A DNA stretch of 64,000 nucleotides, from assembly GCA_038211855.1 (NCBI GenBank), contig JBBQVE010000004.1, positions 867-64,866 on the forward strand. The letters run 5' to 3'. Position 1 is the stretch's first letter. Each line of letters opens with the position of its first letter. Below are positions 10,522 to 61,753 of this stretch, piece after piece. The translations under genes and the position numbers were made by a program. The notes under the pieces are model-generated. The model made no database searches and was not told where the DNA came from. It saw only the letters and a program-made list of their open reading frames with translations. This DNA comes from Candidatus Saccharimonadales bacterium (GTDB taxonomy: Bacteria > Patescibacteriota > Saccharimonadia > Saccharimonadales > SZUA-47).

Positions 10522-11646
10522 TTATGGCTGATAATTGGCAACTCGTAGTAACAAACCAATTTTATCCATATCAGCTGAACCATTGTGATCCCAGTATTGG
10601 TATAACGGACCTACTTGGGCATCGCTGATCGTCGCGTTATCACGATAAAAAGCCGGCCACGCGCCACCAACAAAATCACCGACGTATGCCCCGTACGTCT
10701 GTAGCGCCACAAACAGTTCTGCCCCGATTGGACTTAAACCAGCCGGTTGGGCAACGCCTGCAGGAACACCGATTTTCGTTCCCATTTTGAACGGTCCACG
10801 TCCGCCACCATTGTCAAAACCTGTCGCTGGAGCTATGTAGTTTTTATATATCAGACCTTCCAACATATCTGCCGGCAACGCTAGTGCCAATGCGTGATCG
10901 ATTTTTCCAGAGGCGATGTCATGACCCGTAATCAACCCCGCATCCCACGAAAAATTCGCGGCCCGTGTTCCATCGTTATTCGCCAAAGTACCGGCTCCGG
11001 GACCCATCACGATGTCTCCTGTCGCCCATCCAGCCAGACTACCGTTGGTCACCGTACGCGTCGCTGTATTTACGACGGAATCCCATACTTCATAATAGGT
11101 TGTGCCATCAACGACGATCAAAACCTTGTCAGTATCGACTCCCGAAGCGATATTATCGGGGGCATGAACCTGAAATACGTGGGCCGGCCGATTGCGATTC
11201 CAGTCCGGAGCAATATAATCAGGCAAATTGAACGTCCACATGGGATCCGTTGATTTTGCATAATAGACGCCGAAAGGACCAAGTACATACCAGTGCCGTC
11301 GGCTATCATTGTTTTGTGGTGGGTTTATTGAATGCAATAGTGGTTGGTCAAACCAGACAGTCCCCGTTGGCGTTGGCATATTAAACGGAGAAGTCGCAGA
11401 AAATGGTTTGGCATTACCAGTAGCAGCGGGTGGTAGAACTGAGCCATTACTAATGGGGAATGTCACATAATTACCGCCCGACGCAGTGTTGTCAGCTGCA
11501 GCAAATGCTCCGGCAACAATCGAACCGTTTTCCGGTTCTATTGCATTAGTAACAGGAGTGGCGGCATGAGAAAAAAGAAGAATACTGCCGCCCGCCATGC
11601 CGAACACTACAGCGAAGCACGCAAGCAGACGTTTTTTCATAGGCAT
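10522..11646 (-). CDS. Secreted hypothetical protein
   Basis: The signal peptide is MKKRLLACFAVVFGMAGGSILLFSHA. 374 aa. I recognise no catalytic motif. Confidence 0.5.
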   Translation of the reverse strand: MPMKKRLLACFAVVFGMAGGSILLFSHAATPVTNAIEPENGSIVAGAFAAADNTASGGNYVTFPISNGSVLPPAATGNAKPFSATSPFNMPTPTGTVWFDQPLLHSINPPQNNDSRRHWYVLGPFGVYYAKSTDPMWTFNLPDYIAPDWNRNRPAHVFQVHAPDNIASGVDTDKVLIVVDGTTYYEVWDSVVNTATRTVTNGSLAGWATGDIVMGPGAGTLANNDGTRAANFSWDAGLITGHDIASGKIDHALALALPADMLEGLIYKNYIAPATGFDNGGGRGPFKMGTKIGVPAGVAQPAGLSPIGAELFVALQTYGAYVGDFVGGAWPAFYRDNATISDAQVGPLYQYWDHNGSADMDKIGLLLRVANYQP

Positions 11647-11697
11647 AGCCCTAGTATAGGCATATGCTTTTACGAATCAAAGCAGTAAATAACGAGA

Positions 11698-11706
11698 TGC
11701 TACAAT
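11698..11706 (+). promoter_or_regulatory. Extended -10 (TGCTACAAT), 7 nt before ATG 11714
   Basis: TGCTACAAT-AGGGGTA-ATG. Confidence 0.45.
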
Positions 11707-11713
11707 AGGGGTA

Positions 11714-13240
11714 ATGGCGCGCCTTTCCTTACGTTTTTCCATCATTATCCCCGCGCTTAATGAAGAAGCCTATATTACTGCATCGGTCAAGGCCGCCCAA
11801 GAGCAGGATTTTGCAGACTCATTCGAGATTATCGTCGTCAATAATAACAGCGTCGATCGTACTGCCGCCGTCGCCAAAGAACTGGGCGTGAAGGTCGTCA
11901 ACGAGTCACGCGTCGGCTTACCAAGTGCTCGCGAGGCCGGTAGACGAGCCGCCAAAGGCGAGTTTCTGGTCTACGTCGATGCAGACACCATGCTGCCAAA
12001 AAATTACCTAACTGTTATCGATAAAACCTTCAAAAAATACCCGAAGACCGTGGGTATCAGTAACCCGTTTGAATTTTACGATGGCGCACCAGCCGATCAA
12101 TTCGTCATAAAATTATTCTTCGGTTTTGCTTATCCAGCTCAGAACCTCATTCTCAAATTAATGGGTAAGTCACATCAGCTATTGGGCGGTAGTTTTGCGG
12201 TTCGCGCGCACATCCTTGAAGAGCTCGGCGGCTTTGACATCAGTATCACCTTTTCTGGCGAGGACCTGGCCATCTCCAAATCATTGGCGCGCTATGGCGA
12301 CATTACCATCTTGCAGACCGTCCGCAGCTACACGTCGGCACGGCGCTTTCAGACGCATGGCCGCATTAGGACCTGCGCCGTCTACACCAAAAGCTTTTTC
12401 AGTGTTTTATTGCTACGCAAAGACTCCGATGGAACGCTCCTCAGAAGCCTACTAAAGCTAATGCTGTTCGTCGCCGTCACATCGTTCTTGCTCCGGCATT
12501 TTCACCCGAATCGACACACTATGCACCATCTATATTCGTATGGCCGATGGATTCTGACAGCACTTGCTGCTATTGCCGCCTATGGTATATTTTATCCGAA
12601 ATCGAAACTGTTTGGTCCAACTATCAGCGAGTTCAATACCAGCGCTAAGATTATTGCTCTGACGTTCGACGATGGTCCGCGCCCTGGCTCAACCGAAAAA
12701 GTTTTGAAAATCCTAAAGGATAACGATGTACCTGCTACTTTCTTTTTGGTTGGAGAACACGTCCAAAAGTATCCAGCACTGGCAAAACGAATCCACAAAG
12801 AAGGCCACGAAATTGGCAATCATACCTGGAATCACCGCTGGCTTTTCCCTTTCCATTCACCATCAACTATTTATGAACAAATACGCCACACTCAGCACGA
12901 AATCACTACTGTTTTTGGCGGCAAAGACCCCAACACTTTTCACTTGATACGGCCACCGCACGGCTGGCGGACACCCTGGATGTTGGCTGAGTTGCAGCGA
13001 CGTGGCTTTAAGGTTGTGATGTGGTCGGTCTCGATTGACTTCGTGAATGGCGTCACTATGGAACAAGTCATCAAACGCTACATTACTAAAACTCGTGCGG
13101 GATCGATTTTACTCATGCATGATGCAATTTATGAAAAACCTAGTGACAACCGCAACGTCATGCTAGAAGCACTGCCGGTCATTATCAAGGAGCTCAAAGC
13201 CCAAGGCTACCGCTTTGTGCGTGTCGGCGATATGCTCTAA
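11714..13240 (+). CDS. Glycosyltransferase family 2 fused to polysaccharide deacetylase (CE4/NodB)
   Basis: The N-terminal part has FSIIIPALNEE...VYVDADT, a GT2 signature. A TM segment lies in the middle. The C-terminal part has LTFDDGP...GNHTWNH, the NodB motifs. Confidence 0.8.
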   Translation: MARLSLRFSIIIPALNEEAYITASVKAAQEQDFADSFEIIVVNNNSVDRTAAVAKELGVKVVNESRVGLPSAREAGRRAAKGEFLVYVDADTMLPKNYLTVIDKTFKKYPKTVGISNPFEFYDGAPADQFVIKLFFGFAYPAQNLILKLMGKSHQLLGGSFAVRAHILEELGGFDISITFSGEDLAISKSLARYGDITILQTVRSYTSARRFQTHGRIRTCAVYTKSFFSVLLLRKDSDGTLLRSLLKLMLFVAVTSFLLRHFHPNRHTMHHLYSYGRWILTALAAIAAYGIFYPKSKLFGPTISEFNTSAKIIALTFDDGPRPGSTEKVLKILKDNDVPATFFLVGEHVQKYPALAKRIHKEGHEIGNHTWNHRWLFPFHSPSTIYEQIRHTQHEITTVFGGKDPNTFHLIRPPHGWRTPWMLAELQRRGFKVVMWSVSIDFVNGVTMEQVIKRYITKTRAGSILLMHDAIYEKPSDNRNVMLEALPVIIKELKAQGYRFVRVGDML

Positions 13241-54592: not shown

Positions 54593-55390
54593 CTAACTCG
54601 AAAGCGATTTCTTTTCGGACTTCAGCCAGAGAATCAACATAAAACTAAATATAATGAGAATTGACCACGAACCGACTTTGCTGCCGTGTACGATATGCCA
54701 ACTATTCGTTTGACTTGGATAGCGCCATGCACCAATAAAAGTACCGACATTTTCAGCGACCCAGATGAAGAAGCCGATGAGTAGGAATGACACCGATAAA
54801 TGCATATGATATTTATTACCTCGAACATAAAATCGTACCCAAGTTTTACGCAAAAGAATGAGAGCGGCCAATACCAAAATCCATCTGAAATCTGGCAACC
54901 AGTGATTGGTATAAAAGTTCGCGTAAATGAGCACAGCAACCACCATCGTTGGCGCCATAGGTACGTAATCTACTTCAAGTTTGAAGCGCCGCCAGGCCTG
55001 ACACATATAACTGGCGATGGCTGCATACATAAACCCACTGTAGAGTGGTACGCCGGCGATACGGGCGTGTCCAGCGTCCGGATACGACCATGAACCAAAA
55101 TGTACTTTGAAGATTTCCAGGCAGAGGCCGATGAGGTGAAAGACACAGATGACTTTTAGCTCATCATATGACTCGAGCTTGCTCCACACCATGGCAATCT
55201 GCAGGATCAGACACCAGATCAGCATGACGTCATAGCGCGGTAAACCCAGATGAACGTAACGTGTTATGATTAATCCGCTAAAAATTCCGATAGCAAAAAT
55301 ACTAGACAAAGCCTGCTGCCAAGCGAACCAAAGCAGATCTTTTGACCATTTGCTTAACTTGCTAACTATAGACTTTTCGATATACTTCAC
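54593..55390 (-). CDS. Polytopic integral membrane protein (possibly DUF817-like)
   Basis: 265 aa with about 8 TM helices. Weak family recollection only. Confidence 0.4.
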   Translation of the reverse strand: MKYIEKSIVSKLSKWSKDLLWFAWQQALSSIFAIGIFSGLIITRYVHLGLPRYDVMLIWCLILQIAMVWSKLESYDELKVICVFHLIGLCLEIFKVHFGSWSYPDAGHARIAGVPLYSGFMYAAIASYMCQAWRRFKLEVDYVPMAPTMVVAVLIYANFYTNHWLPDFRWILVLAALILLRKTWVRFYVRGNKYHMHLSVSFLLIGFFIWVAENVGTFIGAWRYPSQTNSWHIVHGSKVGSWSILIIFSFMLILWLKSEKKSLSS

Positions 55391-55419
55391 GTGCTACGTA
55401 TCATAGCAAAACTTTTTAA

Positions 55420-55578
55420 CTATCTTAGTTTCGCAAGTTGCTTTTTGAGCTTTTCATTTTCTACTTTTAGGGAAATCATTTTGAGTTCCTGCCCAACCAT
55501 AGAATCGTTCAGCCGTGTGAGTGCTTCAACAGCGTTTACTTTATCGGTCACGTCTGTCGCTAGCCCCACTGCGCCCAT
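55420..55578 (-). CDS. Small coiled-coil ORF (52 aa)
   Basis: Not in the track. It reads MGAVGLATDVTDKVNAVEALTRLNDSMVGQELKMISLKVENEKLKKQLAKLR. Confidence 0.3.
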   Translation of the reverse strand: MGAVGLATDVTDKVNAVEALTRLNDSMVGQELKMISLKVENEKLKKQLAKLR

Positions 55579-55603: not shown

Positions 55604-55634
55604 TGAAAAAGCCGCCCTTTTGGACGGCGCTTTC
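55604..55634 (-). terminator. Rho-independent terminator abutting the left att repeat (predicted original tRNA-Pro terminator)
   Basis: The minus strand reads GCCGTCC-AAAA-GGGCGGCTTTTTC. It starts 5 nt after the ATTGGTCG repeat (CGACCAAT on the minus strand). Confidence 0.65.
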
Positions 55635-55642
55635 ATTGGTCG
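55635..55642 (+). repeat. Left copy of 8-bp direct repeat ATTGGTCG (candidate att core)
   Basis: Identical to 60679-60686, which covers the last acceptor bases, the discriminator and the CCA of tRNA-Pro. Confidence 0.55.
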
Positions 55643-55791
55643 AGATGCACGGATGTTACTTGAACTGTTTAGGTACATCGTTGCTGAGCCTGAGTCGTCG
55701 CAGCTATTACTAGAGAAGATACGCCACACAGAGCAACGACAGTCTGCACCAGTAGACAATCTGGTCTTTTAAGACATCGCCGAGAGCAGCC

Positions 55792-56220
55792 CTAGTCGTT
55801 GGCAGGGGCGGTCTGTTCGGTACGCTCGGCCAACTCTATCGTCCGAATTTGGTCCTTTAGGACGCCTGGCACGTTTCCGTTAACTATCTCCTGTTGCATC
55901 TCTACTAAGTCTTCGTGACAAAGTTTGTCATCTTCACCATGCATAACTTGCCCAGGATTTTTGTCGTCGTCGGTTCGGGCCAGTGATGCAATGTGTTGTT
56001 CATACCCAGTCGTCTGAAGCTCTACGAAACAAAACATCGGCTTAGCTCGCGTCTCCAGCACGCCGTCTTTTTTTACGCTGCCAGCACGCGCTGTAATCAC
56101 CTCACGCGCTTGCTGTGGGCCTACAATCAGCGCTGCATAAAGGACCTGGTCAATAATAGCGAGGTAGACATACTGTCGGTCTAAGTAAGTGAATATGTCC
56201 CCGTAGCCCATGAAAAGCAT
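55792..56220 (-). CDS. Candidate toxin partner of the Panacea-domain antitoxin (142 aa, no recognisable domain)
   Basis: The track ORF is 55792..56304. I set the start at ATG 56220 (MLFMGYGDIF), which lies 16 nt after the upstream stop and 7 nt after a TGCTAAAAT extended -10. Confidence 0.45.
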   Translation of the reverse strand: MLFMGYGDIFTYLDRQYVYLAIIDQVLYAALIVGPQQAREVITARAGSVKKDGVLETRAKPMFCFVELQTTGYEQHIASLARTDDDKNPGQVMHGEDDKLCHEDLVEMQQEIVNGNVPGVLKDQIRTIELAERTEQTAPAND

Positions 56221-56227
56221 GTCTACT

Positions 56228-56236
56228 ATTTTAGCA
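56228..56236 (-). promoter_or_regulatory. Extended -10 (TGCTAAAAT), 7 nt before ATG 56220
   Basis: The minus strand reads TGCTAAAAT-AGTAGAC-ATG. Confidence 0.4.
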
Positions 56237-56773
56237 CTAGAGGATAGAGAGTGCCAACTTGATTTCGTCTTCCGATACTTTGGCACGCTTATCGTGCGCT
56301 GCAAGGTAGTACGGGATTTGCTCGTTCAGTTTGGTTTCTGACCAAGGGGCTTCCGAATGAGAAGCAGCCTCTATATCTTCAGTGGTAGTCCTTTTAAACT
56401 GTGATGCGACTTGTTCCAGCACCTTCAACTCTGTTTCGCTGAATAACTTCGCGTCGTCGTCGGTAAACCCTCTTGCTGGCAAAAACCTGCACATCTTTGT
56501 GCCTTTAGGATGTTCGCAGCTAACTGTACCTTCAAACACTTGACCTGTGGACTTTGACTCAAAGGTGTCTGCCCAGTCTTTAATCGTTGTAGGTATTGGA
56601 CCGTGTTCTAGATTGTAGTACGTGTCGTAGGTAACGGGGATGCCGTATTCCCTTGTGTGGGTAAAATCAAGATTGTAGAAAAGCTTCATCAGCTTTACTT
56701 TTCCGAGGTACTTCGTATCAGTATAGTTTGCGAAATATGCGAGTATCGCTTCTATCTTCCTCTGATTAGTCAT
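56237..56773 (-). CDS. Panacea (DUF4065 / SocA-like) domain antitoxin candidate
   Basis: KVKLMKLFYNLDFTHTREYGIPVTYDTYYNLEHGPIPTTI matches the DUF4065 core pattern (K.qKLlY..d......g.p......y.a...GPv). 178 aa. Confidence 0.6.
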   Translation of the reverse strand: MTNQRKIEAILAYFANYTDTKYLGKVKLMKLFYNLDFTHTREYGIPVTYDTYYNLEHGPIPTTIKDWADTFESKSTGQVFEGTVSCEHPKGTKMCRFLPARGFTDDDAKLFSETELKVLEQVASQFKRTTTEDIEAASHSEAPWSETKLNEQIPYYLAAHDKRAKVSEDEIKLALSIL

Positions 56774-57061
56774 TTCAACCTCTTCTTGCTATTGTTTCAT
56801 TTTTATTATATACGATTCCCCTGCTCACTGCAACCCACTCCATGCTCTTACCATAAGCATAACATAAGCGCAATAATCAAGTAATTTCTTATATTATTAA
56901 CTCTTTAAATTGTGCTGTTGAAACTTTTATTGTCCAAATAACTAATACTGCAGGTAGGTAAATGTTTACGCCTAATTAGAAATGAGATGGCTCGCAGGGG
57001 GTAGAGTCTGGAAAAGCTGTATCGAGAGTATTTACACTACAGTTTAGAGGTTAGAGGTACA

Positions 57062-57286
57062 CTATGCTGATTGTGAAGCATTAAGCTGATCACGGAACCA
57101 CTCCCATTGCTTGAAGCGTTCTTCCGCAATTATGTCATTCCAAGTACCGCCACAATACTGAGTCGTGTCCAATATAGCAACCTTAATAATATTCACTGCT
57201 TCCGTCTCTATTCGCTCGTACTCTTTTTCGCCATCTTTTGGCATAAACATTTCGCGTAAACTAAGTTCAAATTCTTCTTGTGTCAT
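57062..57286 (-). CDS. Hypothetical protein (74 aa)
   Basis: Acidic ORF in an AT-rich segment of the element. Confidence 0.35.
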   Translation of the reverse strand: MTQEEFELSLREMFMPKDGEKEYERIETEAVNIIKVAILDTTQYCGGTWNDIIAEERFKQWEWFRDQLNASQSA

Positions 57287-57482
57287 ACGTCTATATTAAC
57301 TCATTAAGCACGCTACGTCGTACAATGTATCTTGTACGCAAGAGATTAACAGAGGTGGGCGTCTATTATTTAGTTAAAAAAGGCTTGTCAAGTGGAACGC
57401 TATTCCGTGTTCACCCCTGTTAAATTAATTATTATGCTACATTCTATTATTTATGGTCTGGTAATTTTTAAGATTCCTGTAC

Positions 57483-58187
57483 TTATAGATTGAAAGCATC
57501 ATTGTTTAATTTATTATTATCAATCTTAATTGTATTTGCTAATTCAATAGACTGTTTTTGCTGTTCATTCAACGTATCTTGATCTTTAGCTAACTGAGAT
57601 TTATCAGTATTAAGTTTAGTTTTAGCAGTCGTAACATATGAATAGTCACATATCCCAATATTGCATCCGTTATTTGCAAGTCCTGACTGTATCGTAATCT
57701 GCGAATTATCATTACTGATTGCATTCATATCAGTCTGGATTTGAAAACTCATATCACTTACTGACTTACCTAGGGCATAAAAATTCAGTGAATCATTTAG
57801 GGCTGTAGCAAGATCAGAGTTTAAGGTAATTAAAGTTGGTTGGTTATACGTCGTTCCATTTACGGACGACTGAATAGTTTGTACCTGCGAAGCAATGTCG
57901 TCGTAATAAGTATCCCATTCATCTTTAGTTTTTGTGGTAGTTGAAGGTAATGTTGAGGCCTTTTGGTTAAGTGCGAGGTACTGTTTATAGTTAGTTTCAA
58001 GGCTTGATTTCTCTTTTGCTAATGCCGCGACCTGCTTATTGTGTTGAGCATGACTATTAAAAGAAGTCAGAGCAATGGTTAATGCCACAGCTGCCACCCC
58101 TACGACTATCCAGAAAATATACCTCAAGCGTTGGTTAGCGTCTCTATGTTGTTTAATGTCGTCGTGTAACCACATTCCGTCACTCAT
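57483..58187 (-). CDS. Membrane-anchored coiled-coil protein
   Basis: The TM helix is IFWIVVGVAAVALTIALT, followed by a long region rich in Q, N and K. GGAGA Shine-Dalgarno lies 7 nt upstream. Confidence 0.5.
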   Translation of the reverse strand: MSDGMWLHDDIKQHRDANQRLRYIFWIVVGVAAVALTIALTSFNSHAQHNKQVAALAKEKSSLETNYKQYLALNQKASTLPSTTTKTKDEWDTYYDDIASQVQTIQSSVNGTTYNQPTLITLNSDLATALNDSLNFYALGKSVSDMSFQIQTDMNAISNDNSQITIQSGLANNGCNIGICDYSYVTTAKTKLNTDKSQLAKDQDTLNEQQKQSIELANTIKIDNNKLNNDAFNL

Positions 58188-58274
58188 ATAATTGTCTCCA
58201 TAATAAAAAAGGCACCCGTACTTAGGTGTCTTACGCCACAGTAGGGTTTAGCCTACTGGTTTTGTACGGATGCC
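58188..58274 (-). promoter_or_regulatory. Structured 5' leader with terminator/antiterminator alternative
   Basis: On the minus-strand RNA the terminator is GACACC-uaaguacg-GGUGCC followed by U6, just before the Shine-Dalgarno. The upstream GGCAUCCGUAC (58274-58264) can instead pair with GUACGGGUGCC. An inner hairpin forms from CAGUAGG and CCUACUG. Confidence 0.35.
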
Positions 58275-58452
58275 ATTTTATTGGCTAAACCGTACACAGT
58301 TCGTGCAAGTAAATACTACTGTAGCGTAAGACTTTCTAAGCATACCTCTATCATATGACTTGAACAAGGAGTGCTATAGTAAATATAGGCAACTTAGCCA
58401 GAAGCTTTGTTGCCTTTTGTTTATAAATACTGCGAGAATACTGTGAGAATTT

Positions 58453-58773
58453 ATGGCTAATGAGCAGAATCTAAAACCGTTCCGCAATGGCTATGACGTA
58501 CGTCGTGGAAGTAAGCCTAAAGGCTCTAGGCATGTGTCTAGCTACATTAAAGAATTTCTAGAAGGTGTAGAGATTAAGTACACGCTAATGGGAACTGAAG
58601 TAGAAGGCACGCCCATAGAAGCTATCATTAAAGGTACGATAATCAAAGCAATACAAGGGGACCTAAAGGCATCTGAAATGCTTTTTAAATATGGTTATGG
58701 TCCAAGTGATCATACACTCCTAGAGGAGCAGAAGAAGCTTATTATCATACATCGGAGATATAAATCAAACTAA
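58453..58773 (+). CDS. DUF5681-like phage/plasmid-type protein
   Basis: NLKPFRNGYDVRRGSKPKGSRH resembles the N-terminal motif (nlkPfkkG.sgnp.GrPkGs) seen in phage-associated proteins. The call is by eye. Confidence 0.45.
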   Translation: MANEQNLKPFRNGYDVRRGSKPKGSRHVSSYIKEFLEGVEIKYTLMGTEVEGTPIEAIIKGTIIKAIQGDLKASEMLFKYGYGPSDHTLLEEQKKLIIIHRRYKSN

Positions 58774-58818
58774 ACTTTAGCTTTTTCGATAAATAGTGTA
58801 TAATTGCATTAAATAGGC

Positions 58819-58846
58819 AAATAGCCCTTAACGGAGGGCTATTTTT
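58819..58846 (+). terminator. Rho-independent terminator
   Basis: AAATAGCCCT-taacgg-AGGGCTATTTTT. Confidence 0.65.
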
Positions 58847-58993
58847 ATGCCTACAAAACTTCCAGAGAACGACAAATCGGCCAACAACCACACCAGATCA
58901 GCATTTTTACTAAAAGAAATTGCTATCCTTCCCCAAACTGGCCCTGTTGATTACTATGTTTTAGATAAGTATGGCAACAAAGTGACGTTGTAA
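58847..58993 (+). CDS. Small ORF (48 aa)
   Basis: Not in the track. It reads MPTKLPENDKSANNHTRSAFLLKEIAILPQTGPVDYYVLDKYGNKVTL. It lies directly upstream of the recombinase, so it is a possible excision/directionality factor. That role is speculative. Confidence 0.25.
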   Translation: MPTKLPENDKSANNHTRSAFLLKEIAILPQTGPVDYYVLDKYGNKVTL

Positions 58994-59037
58994 TTTGTTA
59001 GCTAATAACTACACGAACTCCTGTATAGCATATACTT

Positions 59038-60693
59038 ATGCTAATGGACGGAGAGAAGACCACGCAAGAACTACTTGCGATGCTGAGGGGAACATTTGCC
59101 AGTGGAGATTCGCGAGATATTGATATTAAGAGCGTGGTTTATGCTATATACGCACGTAAATCAACGAAGGGCGAGGAACGACAAGAGCGTAGTATTTCAG
59201 ACCAAATAAGTGATTGTGTTAAGCGCGAAGTTGAGCCAAACGGTCTACAAGTCAGTAAGGTAATCGAGGAGAAAGGTAGCGCGAAAGAACCAGACATAAG
59301 ACCAAAGTTTCGTGAGATGCTCAACGATATAAAAGCGGGTCGATACAGCGGTATTATCGCCTGGCACCCAGACCGACTCGCGCGGAACATGAAAGAAGCT
59401 GGTGAAATCATCGACCTCATAGATAAAGGCGTTATTAAGAGCCTCCGATTTGCTACGTTCAGTTTTGAAAACAGCCCTATGGGAAAGATGCTATTAGGTA
59501 TTTCATTCGTCATGTCTAAGCAATACTCCGAGCACTTGAGTGAGAGTGTATCGCGGGGCAATCGCAGGAAGACTGAGGACGGCGTATTCTTCGACGAACA
59601 GAAACATGGCTATTATATTTCCGACGGCCGCCTATTTCCTGACGGCAACAACTTCGTACTCATAAAACAAGCTTTCCAGAAGCGACTCGAAGATTGGTCA
59701 CAGCCAGATATTGTAGAGTGGCTCAACAAGCAGGGATACACTCTTAGAAGAAAAAATAAAGACCCTGTAAGTTTCAAGTGGGATAAGGATACTGTTAGCA
59801 AATTGCTACGAGACCCTGTATACGCAGGCGTGCTTAAGTACGGCAAGAGCTTCTCAGACCTAACACAATACTATGATTTTGAGTCTGCAGTAAGTGTCGA
59901 TGACTTCTTGAAGATTAATAAGATTAAAGATATACACGACCCAAGTCTAGTTTCATCGATGATGCTGAAACGACGTGGTGCGCCAAAAGCCGACCTATTG
60001 CGTGGGGTTGTGCTCTGTGGCTATTGTGACCACGCATTCTCATCAGGCATTACGGTCAAAAAAGATAAATTTACAGGTAAGATAATTTCTAGTCGCTACT
60101 TCTATCGTTGCGAGACAGAGAGTTGCTCCTTTAGAAATAAAAGTGTCAGAGCGAAGATAGTACTAGACTATGCGGTTAAATTCCTTTCGGAGCACTTATT
60201 TACTACTGAAAGTAACTATGTGTCTTACGCGGCCGAGGCTCGTGAGTACGCCAACACGCAGGCTAAGTCACTCGATAGCGACATTGCTAGTTTTGCACGG
60301 CAAGTAGGCAATAAGGAGGCTGAATATGAGCGTACAAAGGCCACAGTGCGAGATAACCCAAAACTTGCCAAACACTATAACCTAGATGAAGTGGAGAGCG
60401 AGCTAGTGATCATCAGAAAAGACCATGCAAAACTCGTAAACACACGGAAGCAACTAGGCTCCGCAATTATTACATACAAGCAATATCTCGAACTTTTTGA
60501 AAACATAGGTGTTATATTGCCAAAAACACACGATATGCAGGTATTAGATGAACTGCTAAGAAAGTTCTTCTCGAACTTCACAGTTAAACTTACGGGTGTA
60601 GGCAAAAAACAGAGGTCAGAAGTTACCCATAAATTAAACGAACCCTGGAATGGGTTCGTAGAATCGAATGAATTCGTGATTGGTCGGGGATAA
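59038..60693 (+). CDS. Large serine recombinase (integrase)
   Basis: The resolvase catalytic domain has YARKSTKGEERQERSISDQ and HPDRLARN. A recombinase domain, a zinc ribbon (CGYCDHAF...YYRCETESC) and a coiled coil follow. The start is probably ATG 59044, which is 7 nt after TATACT. The last 13 nt overlap the tRNA-Pro 3' end on the other strand. Confidence 0.85.
   Translation: MLMDGEKTTQELLAMLRGTFASGDSRDIDIKSVVYAIYARKSTKGEERQERSISDQISDCVKREVEPNGLQVSKVIEEKGSAKEPDIRPKFREMLNDIKAGRYSGIIAWHPDRLARNMKEAGEIIDLIDKGVIKSLRFATFSFENSPMGKMLLGISFVMSKQYSEHLSESVSRGNRRKTEDGVFFDEQKHGYYISDGRLFPDGNNFVLIKQAFQKRLEDWSQPDIVEWLNKQGYTLRRKNKDPVSFKWDKDTVSKLLRDPVYAGVLKYGKSFSDLTQYYDFESAVSVDDFLKINKIKDIHDPSLVSSMMLKRRGAPKADLLRGVVLCGYCDHAFSSGITVKKDKFTGKIISSRYFYRCETESCSFRNKSVRAKIVLDYAVKFLSEHLFTTESNYVSYAAEAREYANTQAKSLDSDIASFARQVGNKEAEYERTKATVRDNPKLAKHYNLDEVESELVIIRKDHAKLVNTRKQLGSAIITYKQYLELFENIGVILPKTHDMQVLDELLRKFFSNFTVKLTGVGKKQRSEVTHKLNEPWNGFVESNEFVIGRG
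60679..60686 (+). repeat. Right copy of 8-bp direct repeat ATTGGTCG (candidate att core)
   Basis: It lies inside the recombinase stop region and the tRNA-Pro 3' end. Confidence 0.55.
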
Positions 60694-60757
60694 AGGACTC
60701 GAACCTTCGACCTCGCGGTCCCAAACCGCGCGCGCTAGCCAACTGCGCCAATCCCCG
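60681..60757 (-). tRNA. tRNA-Pro (anticodon TGG)
   Basis: On the minus strand: acceptor CGGGGAT/ATCCCCG, anticodon arm CGCGG-TTTGGGA-CCGCG, T arm GAAGG-TTCGAGT-CCTTT. CCA is encoded. Confidence 0.85.
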
Positions 60758-60832: not shown

Positions 60833-61753
60833 TTAGGCAGCAAGGTCAAAAACACGCGGTCGAGCGATTCCGAGGGCTGCTACCGCAGCTTGCTGACCTG
60901 CCCAGTAACCGTTCATGAGAATCTCTGGTCTTTGTTCGAACGTGCCAGGAAGCACCCCTTCTGCCTTGGGATAAATGGTTTCGACGTTGTCAGGCAACCC
61001 ATTCGTGATCCTGACTGTCTGGTCGAGTGCAAACTTACAGAACTTGCCGAGGTTACTCATCCGCCCACTCGTCAAAGTATTCCATGCATCCACCGGTATC
61101 GATGGCCACTTGTTGTACTTCCAGGTCTTATAGGGATGATTGCTTATGTCGATGACGTGCGTAGCCCCCAAATGTAGCGCAAGGTCTGGTGTCGTCGGCC
61201 AGCTCGTTCCCCCATCAGTGTGATCACTGCGTGTCCAGCCTGCTGCTATTGGTAGTTCTGTTGCATTTCGCAAATGGCCGATCAGTTCTTTCGGATGGAA
61301 GTTCTTACTATTTACCGCAACTGGCTCCTGGGTGCGCCTGTCAGTCAAGCCGATGCCTAGGAGCGCAGGGTGGTTCATTATAGCGTTGATGTCCAGTTCC
61401 TTTGCCATATACGACTGGAGTATACCGAGGTCTACCATCCGCCAAAACCGTCGCTTATTAATGAAGCCTATTTCCTGTGCGCTCAGATGAAATTCAAGAG
61501 CCGTATCAGTCTGTCCTCCCATTGCTGCCGCAGCATGAACGGCACCTACTGAGATACCGACTATACCCTTAAAATAAGGCAGTAGGCCTTCGCTCTCGAA
61601 AAAACTCAGTGCCCCAAGCCCTGTTATACCGGCCATCCCGCCGCCTTGTACCGACAAGAATGGACTATCTTCCGGGTTATCTTGTGGCGTGACCCCATCG
61701 GCTTGATAGGCAAGTAAAAGTTCGGTTGGAGATAGGTGAGAATATTCTGACAT
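60833..61753 (-). CDS. Patatin-like phospholipase
   Basis: GGGMAGITGLG is the oxyanion motif, GISVGA is GxSxG, and HTDGG is the DGG motif. Confidence 0.7.
   Translation of the reverse strand: MSEYSHLSPTELLLAYQADGVTPQDNPEDSPFLSVQGGGMAGITGLGALSFFESEGLLPYFKGIVGISVGAVHAAAAMGGQTDTALEFHLSAQEIGFINKRRFWRMVDLGILQSYMAKELDINAIMNHPALLGIGLTDRRTQEPVAVNSKNFHPKELIGHLRNATELPIAAGWTRSDHTDGGTSWPTTPDLALHLGATHVIDISNHPYKTWKYNKWPSIPVDAWNTLTSGRMSNLGKFCKFALDQTVRITNGLPDNVETIYPKAEGVLPGTFEQRPEILMNGYWAGQQAAVAALGIARPRVFDLAA

Follow-up and report, generated by a model that had tools for sequence, protein, structure and literature searches.

Why does the gene of a large serine recombinase (LSR) run into the end of a tRNA gene on the opposite strand? 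The case lies in a 64,000-nucleotide stretch of DNA (the window) from a Candidatus Saccharimonadales bacterium (GenBank assembly GCA_038211855.1, contig JBBQVE010000004.1, positions 867 to 64,866), where an earlier note, made from the sequence alone, had proposed an integrative element of about 5 kb inserted at the 3' end of tRNA-Pro. Our analysis suggests, with a probability that we put at roughly 85%, that positions 55643-60686 are a small site-specific integrative element of this Saccharibacteria genome, that it is moved by the LSR, and that its attachment site (attP) is situated within the LSR gene. As far as sequence comparison can tell, this is carried by the boundaries of the element, the in-frame continuation (tail) of the recombinase at its far end, the selection acting on that tail, closed circular relatives and the recurrent use of the same site. 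The features on which the argument turns are the following.

55643..60686, no strand: the integrated element, bounded by two copies of ATTGGTCG and marked also by its GC content and by the empty-site layout that its deletion leaves
55635..55642, no strand: core of the left junction (attL), with the family-wide TGGTCG part at 55637-55642
60679..60686, no strand: core of the right junction (attR), with the family-wide TGGTCG part at 60681-60686, which is the 3' CGACCA of the tRNA
60681..60757, minus strand: tRNA-Pro(UGG), the target gene, intact with encoded CCA (ARAGORN, tgg anticodon)
55611..55628, minus strand: stem-loop, by origin the host terminator of tRNA-Pro, from which 5 kb now separate it
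59038..60693, plus strand: the LSR, integrated isoform of 551 amino acids (aa) ending …VIGRG* (Pfam Resolvase and Recombinase)
55643..55772, plus strand: putative detached 3' end of the LSR gene, 42 codons and a stop, in frame after …VIGR in the circle and with homologous tails elsewhere

Counting one copy of the 8-bp repeat, the integrated element is 5,044 bp long and has a GC content of 41.7% against about 47-52% in its flanks. Exactly two copies of ATTGGTCG are present in the window (55635-55642 and 60679-60686); on the tRNA strand the sequence reads CGACCAAT and spans the 3' end of the tRNA. By chance 2.0 copies per window would be expected, and since the repeat is therefore not significant alone, the case for an insertion rests on comparison with other genomes. 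The relatives compared are 80 loci from a scan with the neighbouring RNase Y gene (best protein identity 88%), nearly all of them titled Saccharibacteria, in which RNase Y, tRNA-Pro(tgg), a 220-aa membrane protein and a P-type ATPase follow one another in conserved order with varying spacing. The 67 loci (GTDB species) with enough sequence past the tRNA were classified. In about 27 of these 67, all from species other than the window's strain, the terminator begins within a few bases of the CCA, which is the layout of an uninterrupted target site (attB). In-silico deletion of 55643-60686 leaves tRNA-Pro(UGG) directly abutting the terminator, a hairpin with a T-run at 55628-55611 on the tRNA strand (-21.8 kcal/mol with its flanks, z = -3.6), and the resulting order of CGACCA, ATGAAA, hairpin and TTTTCAT is that of the sites in L013, L045, L031 and L025, whose tRNA-Pro is identical to the window's at 77 of 77 positions. 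The in-silico empty site of the window thus corresponds to real empty sites in other species. At their attL the relatives have the window's layout of host terminator, TGGTCG and then AGA, and the core common to attL and attR of all their elements is the 6-bp TGGTCG (the CGACCA end of the tRNA); the two extra matching bases of the 8-mer (AT) are specific to the window's element. In all these respects the earlier note has held: it had given the repeat as the bounds of the element, the opposite-strand tRNA-Pro as intact (the ARAGORN call agrees) and a rho-independent terminator beyond the left repeat, it had likened the deleted form to an empty attB, and the comparison that it called for with relatives lacking the insert turned up the uninterrupted sites, four with an identical tRNA. 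It had also observed that the LSR open reading frame (ORF) ends at 60693, 13 nt inside the tRNA, and the reason for this appears to be the placing of attP within the recombinase gene and not coincidence.

That placing becomes visible when the element is closed into a circle. Joining 60686 to 55643 keeps the LSR frame open for 42 more codons, giving a protein of 592 aa that ends …DNLVF* and reads …VIGRDARMLLELFRYIVAEPESSQLLLEKIRHTEQRQSAPVDNLVF* across the junction. The stretch 55643-55772, a spacer in appearance, would be the detached 3' end of the LSR gene, and attP spans a conserved Gly-Arg pair of codons (GGT CG) that lies 42 codons ahead of the stop; in the integrated LSR the last codon and the stop come from the antisense of the tRNA. 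Homologues of the tail lie at the distal ends of the elements in L008 (two, E = 5e-10 and 1e-9), L080 and L020, in LSR orientation and each right after a host-type terminator and TGGTCG. The window tail is also homologous to the contiguous C-termini of two full-length LSRs, P0003 (592 aa) and P0033 (593 aa), both ending in …LLELF…GLVF*. When the reconstructed protein of 592 aa was used as query, 1,443 homologues came up at E <= 0.001. Of the best 120, in a list read by eye, about 95 end with GRG*, GRGERT*, GRGDRT* or GRGERTRTFDL.VPNRAR*; these endings are the frame-1 translation of antisense tRNA-Pro, and the homologues bearing them are integrated copies. The protein database also holds 23 orphan tail ORFs, annotated as small hypothetical proteins, one of which shares an 858,670-bp contig with a truncated LSR. 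The tail looks like a coding sequence under constraint: all six tails examined have 44 codons from the Gly-Arg to the stop and end LV(F/Y), and the ratio of nonsynonymous to synonymous differences per site (pN/pS) is 0.17-0.67, below 1 in 15 of 15 pairs, with pS at 0.58-0.89, near saturation. Integration and excision would accordingly be expected to change the last 43-44 aa of the enzyme.

Free forms of such elements have been assembled repeatedly. P0033 is encoded on two 5,667-bp contigs, L084 and L085, from different runs and samples; each has a terminal overlap of 30 bp, and the two prove to be exact permutations of a single circle of 5,637 bp. P0111 is on a closed circle of 5,194 bp (L113) and P0106 on one of 4,727 bp (L114/L115), assembled in two samples. 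All three closed circles, which come from the runs SRR26786778/9, SRR30949865/71 and SRR20750787, carry full-length LSRs with the tail contiguous; the 5,648-bp contig that bears P0003 is not closed. Scans for the attP junction with a degenerate pattern for the whole family, not with the exact junction of the window's element, gave 0 matches in IMG/VR and 22 in JGI metagenomes, 21 of them unrelated and one an orphan tail (L097). This orphan, at 2551-2686 of a 58-kb JGI contig, is an intact 44-codon tail (GRDTHILLELFKYITENPDQSQRLLDKLRATRPKQPQLIEGLVY) with no terminator evident by eye upstream and no LSR or tRNA in the 5.4 kb examined. Among the integrated relatives, the element is 2.9 kb long in L080 and 5.3 kb in L020, and in L008 it is about 7.8 kb, with a further remnant of 1.25 kb. 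The relatives' elements (2.9-9 kb) and the free circles (4.7-5.6 kb) are all small, which indicates that small size is native to the family and not a product of decay.

The same tRNA end has evidently been used many times. Sequence homologous to the 3' end of the window's LSR lies directly after the tRNA in 8-9 of the 67 loci, with full-length LSRs of the window's type in L008 (68% identity), L080 (55%) and L020 (48%) and fragments or the hairpin alone in the rest. A second LSR type, of about 30% identity, is found at this tRNA-Pro end in 8-9 loci and a third in L023, and the LSR ORFs at this site all run into the last ~10 nt of the tRNA. Roughly a quarter of the species in the clade carry an element or a scar here, making the site a major source of local variation, with cargo that includes restriction-modification, GmrSD-like, toxin-antitoxin and pyridine-nucleotide-disulphide-oxidoreductase genes. 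Several further observations concern these relatives. The second-type loci are L003, L010, L014, L019, L030, L047, L071, L079 and L082, where the ORFs also cross the core at Gly-Arg codons, and a tail search for this type returned window-type tails only, so that no tails are claimed for it. The second and third types each bring their own hairpin about 20 nt past the tRNA, that of the second type being AAATCCACCAT…ATGGTGGATTT. A sister LSR clade (P0106 and P0111, in circles L113-L115, with P0107, P0116 and P0117) has a Gly-Ala junction and tails of the form …EQNLLKLF…; its truncated members read into the antisense of another tRNA (GAG.ETLT..LILGKDAL), by back-translation probably tRNA-Gly(GCC), and the codons at the junction seem to vary together with the end of the tRNA that is targeted. 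L008 contains two attL-like units 1,249 bp apart (11601-11733 and 12850-12982), each comprising its own host terminator, TGGTCG as core and an intact tail of 44 codons, and the differences between the two copies are mainly synonymous; this doubled attL suggests a tandem or remnant element or a captured host flank.

From these data we propose the following cycle. The LSR would target the last six bases of the tRNA-Pro(UGG) gene, CGACCA, or, on the strand of the LSR, TGGTCG. Its gene would encode the 592-aa protein in the free circle of 5,044 bp. Integration into attB, that is, the tRNA 3' end followed by the terminator, would leave the tRNA intact and displace the host terminator by 5 kb, and at the same time cut the tail off the LSR gene, leaving a 551-aa enzyme that ends …GRG* in the antisense of the tRNA. 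Termination of tRNA-Pro transcription would be taken over by a hairpin in the last LSR codons, and excision would rejoin the LSR gene. The hairpin is a feature of the element itself.

60638..60659, minus strand: element-borne hairpin, probable replacement terminator, within the stretch of the LSR gene that codes for N-E-P-W-N-G-F-V

On the tRNA strand it reads ACGAACCC-ATTCCA-GGGTTCGT followed by TTTAATTT, from 60659 to 60638, and begins 22 nt past the tRNA end. It is the second-listed terminator-like site in the region and folds stably in the window and in the relatives. It is the antisense of the LSR codons E-P-x-x-G-F, and the codons GAA, CCC, GGG and TTC are fixed in 9 of 9 sequences, where CCC makes up 19% of the Pro codons and GGG 10% of the Gly codons in these genes. 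The hairpin and its T-run are also still present at loci with a decayed or missing LSR (L028, L033 and L069). Fixed rare codons and retention after loss of the LSR together point to selection at the nucleic-acid level. We infer that the hairpin most likely terminates tRNA-Pro transcripts in place of the displaced host terminator; it is possible that it is part of the attP arm.

By every criterion that could be applied to its sequence, the enzyme is a large serine recombinase. The 551-aa protein, identical to database protein P0001, matches Resolvase (PF00239) with 78 bits and Recombinase (PF07508) with 52 bits, and Zn_ribbon_recom (PF13408) with 22.5 bits, under the 25.3-bit cut-off. Among 52 homologues its S41 is invariant, as are four cysteines (C327, C330, C358 and C363), and the motif Y-A-R-K-S-T is conserved. 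In the AlphaFold model of the homologue P0003 (592 aa; mean predicted local distance difference test score, pLDDT, of 81.5) the catalytic, recombinase and zinc-ribbon domains and the coiled coil are complete before G549-R550, with long paired helices (391-439 and 449-475) inserted in the beta-rich zinc-ribbon domain, and the model thus predicts that the 551-aa integrated enzyme retains all the canonical LSR domains. It is distant from the characterised large serine recombinases, as the NCBIfam XisF and CcrB models score far under their cut-offs. Solved structures match it, in a sequence search, in the N-terminal catalytic domain only, and the tail can therefore not be mapped onto a known LSR structure. 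In the model the tail of P0003 forms two helices, 552-564 and 566-580, at low confidence and with no contacts reported by AlphaFold, and the circle form of the window's tail is likewise predicted, at low confidence, as two helices, …GRDARMLLELFRYIVAEPESS…NLVF. The staggered 2-bp crossover is expected within TGGTCG. One candidate, a TG centre, has GTTCG/CGAAC arms at about +/-24-28 that fit, but they lie farther out than the zinc-ribbon motif of A118 at positions 16-24 (PMC3783163), and we do not claim it. Many empty-site terminators (L013, L031, L045, L005, L039 and L074) are long palindromes that take in the ACCA of the tRNA and end TGGT(C), so that attB often has an inverted copy of the core about 40 nt away.

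The rest of the element is taken up by the following genes.

58847..58993, plus strand: small ORF of 48 aa, a candidate for an accessory or directionality factor, just upstream of the LSR (position, shared motif)
58453..58773, plus strand: DUF5681 protein of 106 aa (Pfam DUF5681, 24.5 bits, under the 27.5-bit cut-off)
57483..58187, minus strand: cargo, 234-aa protein with a hydrophobic stretch near its N-terminus, seen by eye (ORF list)
57062..57286, minus strand: cargo, 74-aa ORF (ORF list)
56237..56773, minus strand: cargo, SocA/Panacea-domain antitoxin of 178 aa (Pfam PF13274, 58 bits)
55792..56220, minus strand: cargo, 142-aa ORF downstream of the antitoxin, putative toxin partner (position only)

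The C-terminal motif of the 48-aa ORF, Y-V/Y-x-D-x-x-G-N-K-V-x-L, is shared by ORFs in the same position in L083 and L008, and the ORF has no family match in Pfam or PHROGs. Between a small ORF and the LSR start a non-coding stretch, …CTACACGAACTCCTG…, is conserved in three elements (window 58994-59037, L083 about 213-264, L008 upstream of 18993) and may be a promoter or operator. The earlier note had seen a toxin-antitoxin-like pair, and here the antitoxin stands, with its Panacea domain; the toxin partner is assigned by position and its ORF has no match in Pfam, PADLOC or NCBIfam, the sole PHROGs hit being marginal (E = 0.008, a family of unknown function, for the longest version of the ORF, which reaches 56304 and has 170 aa; in the Logan contig L002 the gene is called at 142 aa). 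The phage-type character it had given to the DUF5681-like ORF is borne out through closer homologues, which carry PF18932, and not through the window's own match, which is below the cut-off. Two homologues (P0152 and P0155, 45-47% identity) lie in phage fragments directly upstream of, and overlapping, the genes for the large terminase subunit, which is the small-terminase position, and the versions in elements share the N-terminal ~90 residues and are without the acidic C-terminus of the phage proteins. The 234-aa protein has no match in Pfam, PHROGs, PADLOC or NCBIfam and is absent from the relatives' loci, as are all the other cargo genes of the window from the full set of 80. PADLOC and NCBIfam gave nothing for the cargo as a whole. 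When six elements were compared all against all with BLAST, the only links were DUF5681 (between window and L084) and Panacea (between window and L083, a relative that also carries this gene); the remaining clusters came for the most part from ORFs lying antisense within LSR genes or from chance links. The relatives carry their own cargo: a DNA methyltransferase-like and endonuclease-like gene pair in L020 (by eye), a GmrSD_N protein in L114/L115, and a pyridine-nucleotide-disulphide oxidoreductase with regulator-like and NUDIX-like ORFs (by eye) in L008. L080 encodes a Terminase_2-like protein (26.7 bits; phrog_51, E = 3e-10) and L008 a 76-aa protein matching small-terminase PHROGs (E = 4e-8), and the match in L020 is weak. 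Searches of the window's 5 kb with Pfam and PHROGs found no capsid, tail, large-terminase or lysis genes, in agreement with the earlier note, which had seen no structural phage genes, and its description of a minimal integrative or satellite-like element fits the sizes of the relatives and circles, whose recombinases are homologous.

As for lifestyle, the reading that we prefer, at a little under even odds, is that of a helper-dependent phage satellite, because the window's element and a number of its relatives have small-terminase-like proteins but no large terminase, capsid or recognisable replication gene; the remaining cargo would be addiction or defence modules. Alternatively, and with a smaller though still appreciable chance, the element is an integrative plasmid or plain mobile island, with an unrecognised replicon or spread by the natural competence of Saccharibacteria, and the DUF5681 and terminase-like proteins are merely DNA-binding regulators or directionality factors. 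Five closed-circle contigs from several samples suggest that the episomal form can dominate, and most cargo ORFs are without known function and could hide a replication gene, but among the six elements no replication, relaxase or partition gene was detected, nor any large-terminase or capsid gene, and small-terminase-like proteins unrelated to one another occur in four different elements, a pattern that resembles functional convergence. What favours the island also counts against the satellite: the small-terminase-like matches are weak or confined to N-terminal domains, the circle L114 has no terminase-like gene and IMG/VR gave no match. For the satellite, moreover, no helper phage is known. 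One phage fragment with a DUF5681-type small terminase (L108, 7-2657) also encodes GTP cyclohydrolase I/QueF-like, DUF6884 and ParB_N proteins; this gene set looks like a 7-deazaguanine DNA-modification module, and a phage of this kind could serve as a helper.

Whether there is a mobile element here at all can be answered with more assurance. That the repeat is due to chance and the recombinase is a host invertase or resolvase beside which nothing was inserted is suggested by the expected frequency of the 8-mer, about twice per window, but this is effectively refuted by the empty sites, distal tails and closed circles of relatives and by the tRNA read-through in most homologues. It is also improbable that the element is what remains of a decayed prophage, or a genomic islet that has become fixed and lost its mobility: the LSR ORF, the 44-codon tail and both cores are intact and small size is native to the family, against which stand the missing structural genes and the loci where LSR fragments or the hairpin only are left at the site (L028, L033, L048, L069 and L081). 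A more serious objection, which we nevertheless consider unlikely, is that the tail is functionless as a protein, attP overlapping a dispensable 3' end of the LSR gene and its conservation being that of recombinase-binding DNA. The first ~10 codons of the tail do lie within the expected attP arm, the LLELF codons being within ~30 bp of the core and inside a typical attP half-site (PMC3783163), and their conservation could reflect DNA recognition; the canonical fold is complete without the tail, which has a pLDDT of 32-61. The conservation, however, reaches 130 bp from the core, well past a 25-bp half-site, and all six tails keep the same length and ending. For codons 14-44 alone pN/pS is 0.18-0.76, at nearly saturated synonymous sites; each of the other two frames is interrupted by 1-6 stops; and between the two tails of L008 the last six codons (IENLVY) all differ, and do so synonymously. 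Some results also weigh against the proposal of an active element with attP in the recombinase gene. No empty site, circle or attP junction of the window's exact element was seen, and exact-protein look-ups of the flanking genes returned just two short Logan contigs (SRR19962015, the sole further data on this strain) with an integrated attL and no empty site. The LSRs of the circular relatives are 50-66% identical to the window's, those of the three closed circles 50-59%, and palindrome scoring around every possible centre gave no clear winner for the crossover dinucleotide.

If the tail functions as protein, the 551-aa and 592-aa isoforms, we infer, behave differently. We speculate, though only tentatively, that the self-splitting gene is a built-in state sensor, the tail being present only in the circle and altering the action of the recombinase there. 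It might allow or favour synapsis of attP with attB, alter protein stability or bind an accessory protein such as the small upstream ORF product or the DUF5681 protein; the tail-less chromosomal isoform would be tuned for quiescence or excision, and directionality would be partly set by DNA topology and not wholly by a separate directionality factor.

The domain plan of the LSR is that of the large serine integrases (phiC31, Bxb1, A118/LI, TP901-1, SPbeta SprA, CcrAB and TnpX), and the element shares with their systems a short common core without long repeats; simple integration by attP and attB is expected here. It differs from them in that its target is the end of a tRNA gene and its attP is inside its own ORF, giving two isoforms. 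Use of a tRNA or tmRNA gene by serine integrases was previously unreported according to Mageeney et al. (2020), who predicted 14 cases among 297 (PMC7192596). There is a likeness, too, to the 'suicidal' tyrosine integrases of archaea (SSV1, pTN3 and pT26-2), whose gene carries the recombination site and is split by integration into a tRNA gene, and a review describes self-disrupting recombinases as exclusively archaeal (PMC8371274). The SSV-type split detaches the N-terminal part from the catalytic domain and inactivates the enzyme, whereas the window's LSR loses only a 44-aa accessory tail. Of the SSV-type characters, it has the attP within the integrase gene, and it does not have the tyrosine recombinase inactivated by the split, being a serine enzyme that keeps its domains. 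In the integration-dependent immunity of mycobacteriophages, reportedly described by Broussard and colleagues in 2013, attP is inside the repressor gene. There, as here, integration alters the C-terminus of a protein of the element and yields episomal and integrated isoforms, but the altered protein is a repressor, in phages with a tyrosine integrase, and here it is the recombinase itself. The very small size, site-specific integration and lack of capsid genes recall satellites such as PICI (phage-inducible chromosomal islands), the Staphylococcus aureus pathogenicity islands (SaPIs) and the phage-inducible chromosomal minimalist islands (PICMI), and the defence-type cargo of the relatives (the restriction-modification pair and the GmrSD-like protein) is also reminiscent of small phage satellites. 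SaPIs carry a small terminase. PICMI measures about 6.1 kb, has a tyrosine integrase next to fis, possesses alpA and a primase gene and lacks terS (PMC10803314); the window's element differs in having an LSR as integrase and no primase or replication gene that could be found. The tycheposons of Prochlorococcus are tRNA-adjacent islands that recall the window in having tRNA-Pro(tgg) among their hotspots and LSRs in a minority, but 910 of 937 use tyrosine recombinases, many carry replication genes, and unlike in the window's element an attP inside the recombinase gene is not described for them (bioRxiv 10.1101/2020.12.28.424599). Our literature search, whose coverage was incomplete, found no description of LSR elements in Saccharibacteria, of targeting of the CCA end of tRNA-Pro, or of a serine recombinase with attP in its own ORF.

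The window's element belongs to a large and, it appears, so far undescribed family with two notable design features, an attP in the recombinase gene and a probable replacement terminator embedded in coding sequence. Serine integrases are prized tools of genome engineering, and tRNA genes are believed to be seldom or never their targets (PMC7192596). An entire family uses one here, to judge from its many homologues and the fusion of most of the best 120 to antisense tRNA-Pro, and its target would be only the six terminal bases of the tRNA. It would be a bacterial, serine-family counterpart of the self-splitting archaeal tyrosine recombinases, in which the tail is trimmed and the enzyme is not destroyed, and such trimming is a clean natural experiment on the control of directionality. 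Were the tail indeed a sensor of state, Bacteria and the serine family would have here their first self-splitting recombinase gene, one that would offer ready-made integration tools for Saccharibacteria and other bacteria of the candidate phyla radiation (CPR), in which genetic manipulation is difficult. Genetic tools for these CPR epibionts are few, and an obvious candidate for an integration system is an LSR of their own, whose attP and attB are defined and whose target tRNA is conserved.

Some minor observations concern the surroundings of the site. The two Logan contigs from SRR19962015 (L001 and L002) encode proteins 100% identical to the window's; the end of L001 corresponds to window position 60708, inside the tRNA, and the start of L002 to about 57272, inside the element, and no LSR-bearing contig was recovered from that run. 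A patatin-like gene between RNase Y and the tRNA (60833-61753), and a 52-aa ORF and a DUF817 gene in the interval from the terminator to the gene of the 220-aa membrane protein (54593-55578), have no counterparts at these positions in the 80 loci, which indicates that the neighbourhood of the tRNA is variable beyond the LSR element. Unlike in the window and most loci, tRNA-Pro(tgg) is inverted relative to RNase Y in L003, L005, L008, L018, L034, L039 and L072, and in L008 the whole element is inverted together with it; it is possible that recombinase action inverted the tRNA in these relatives.

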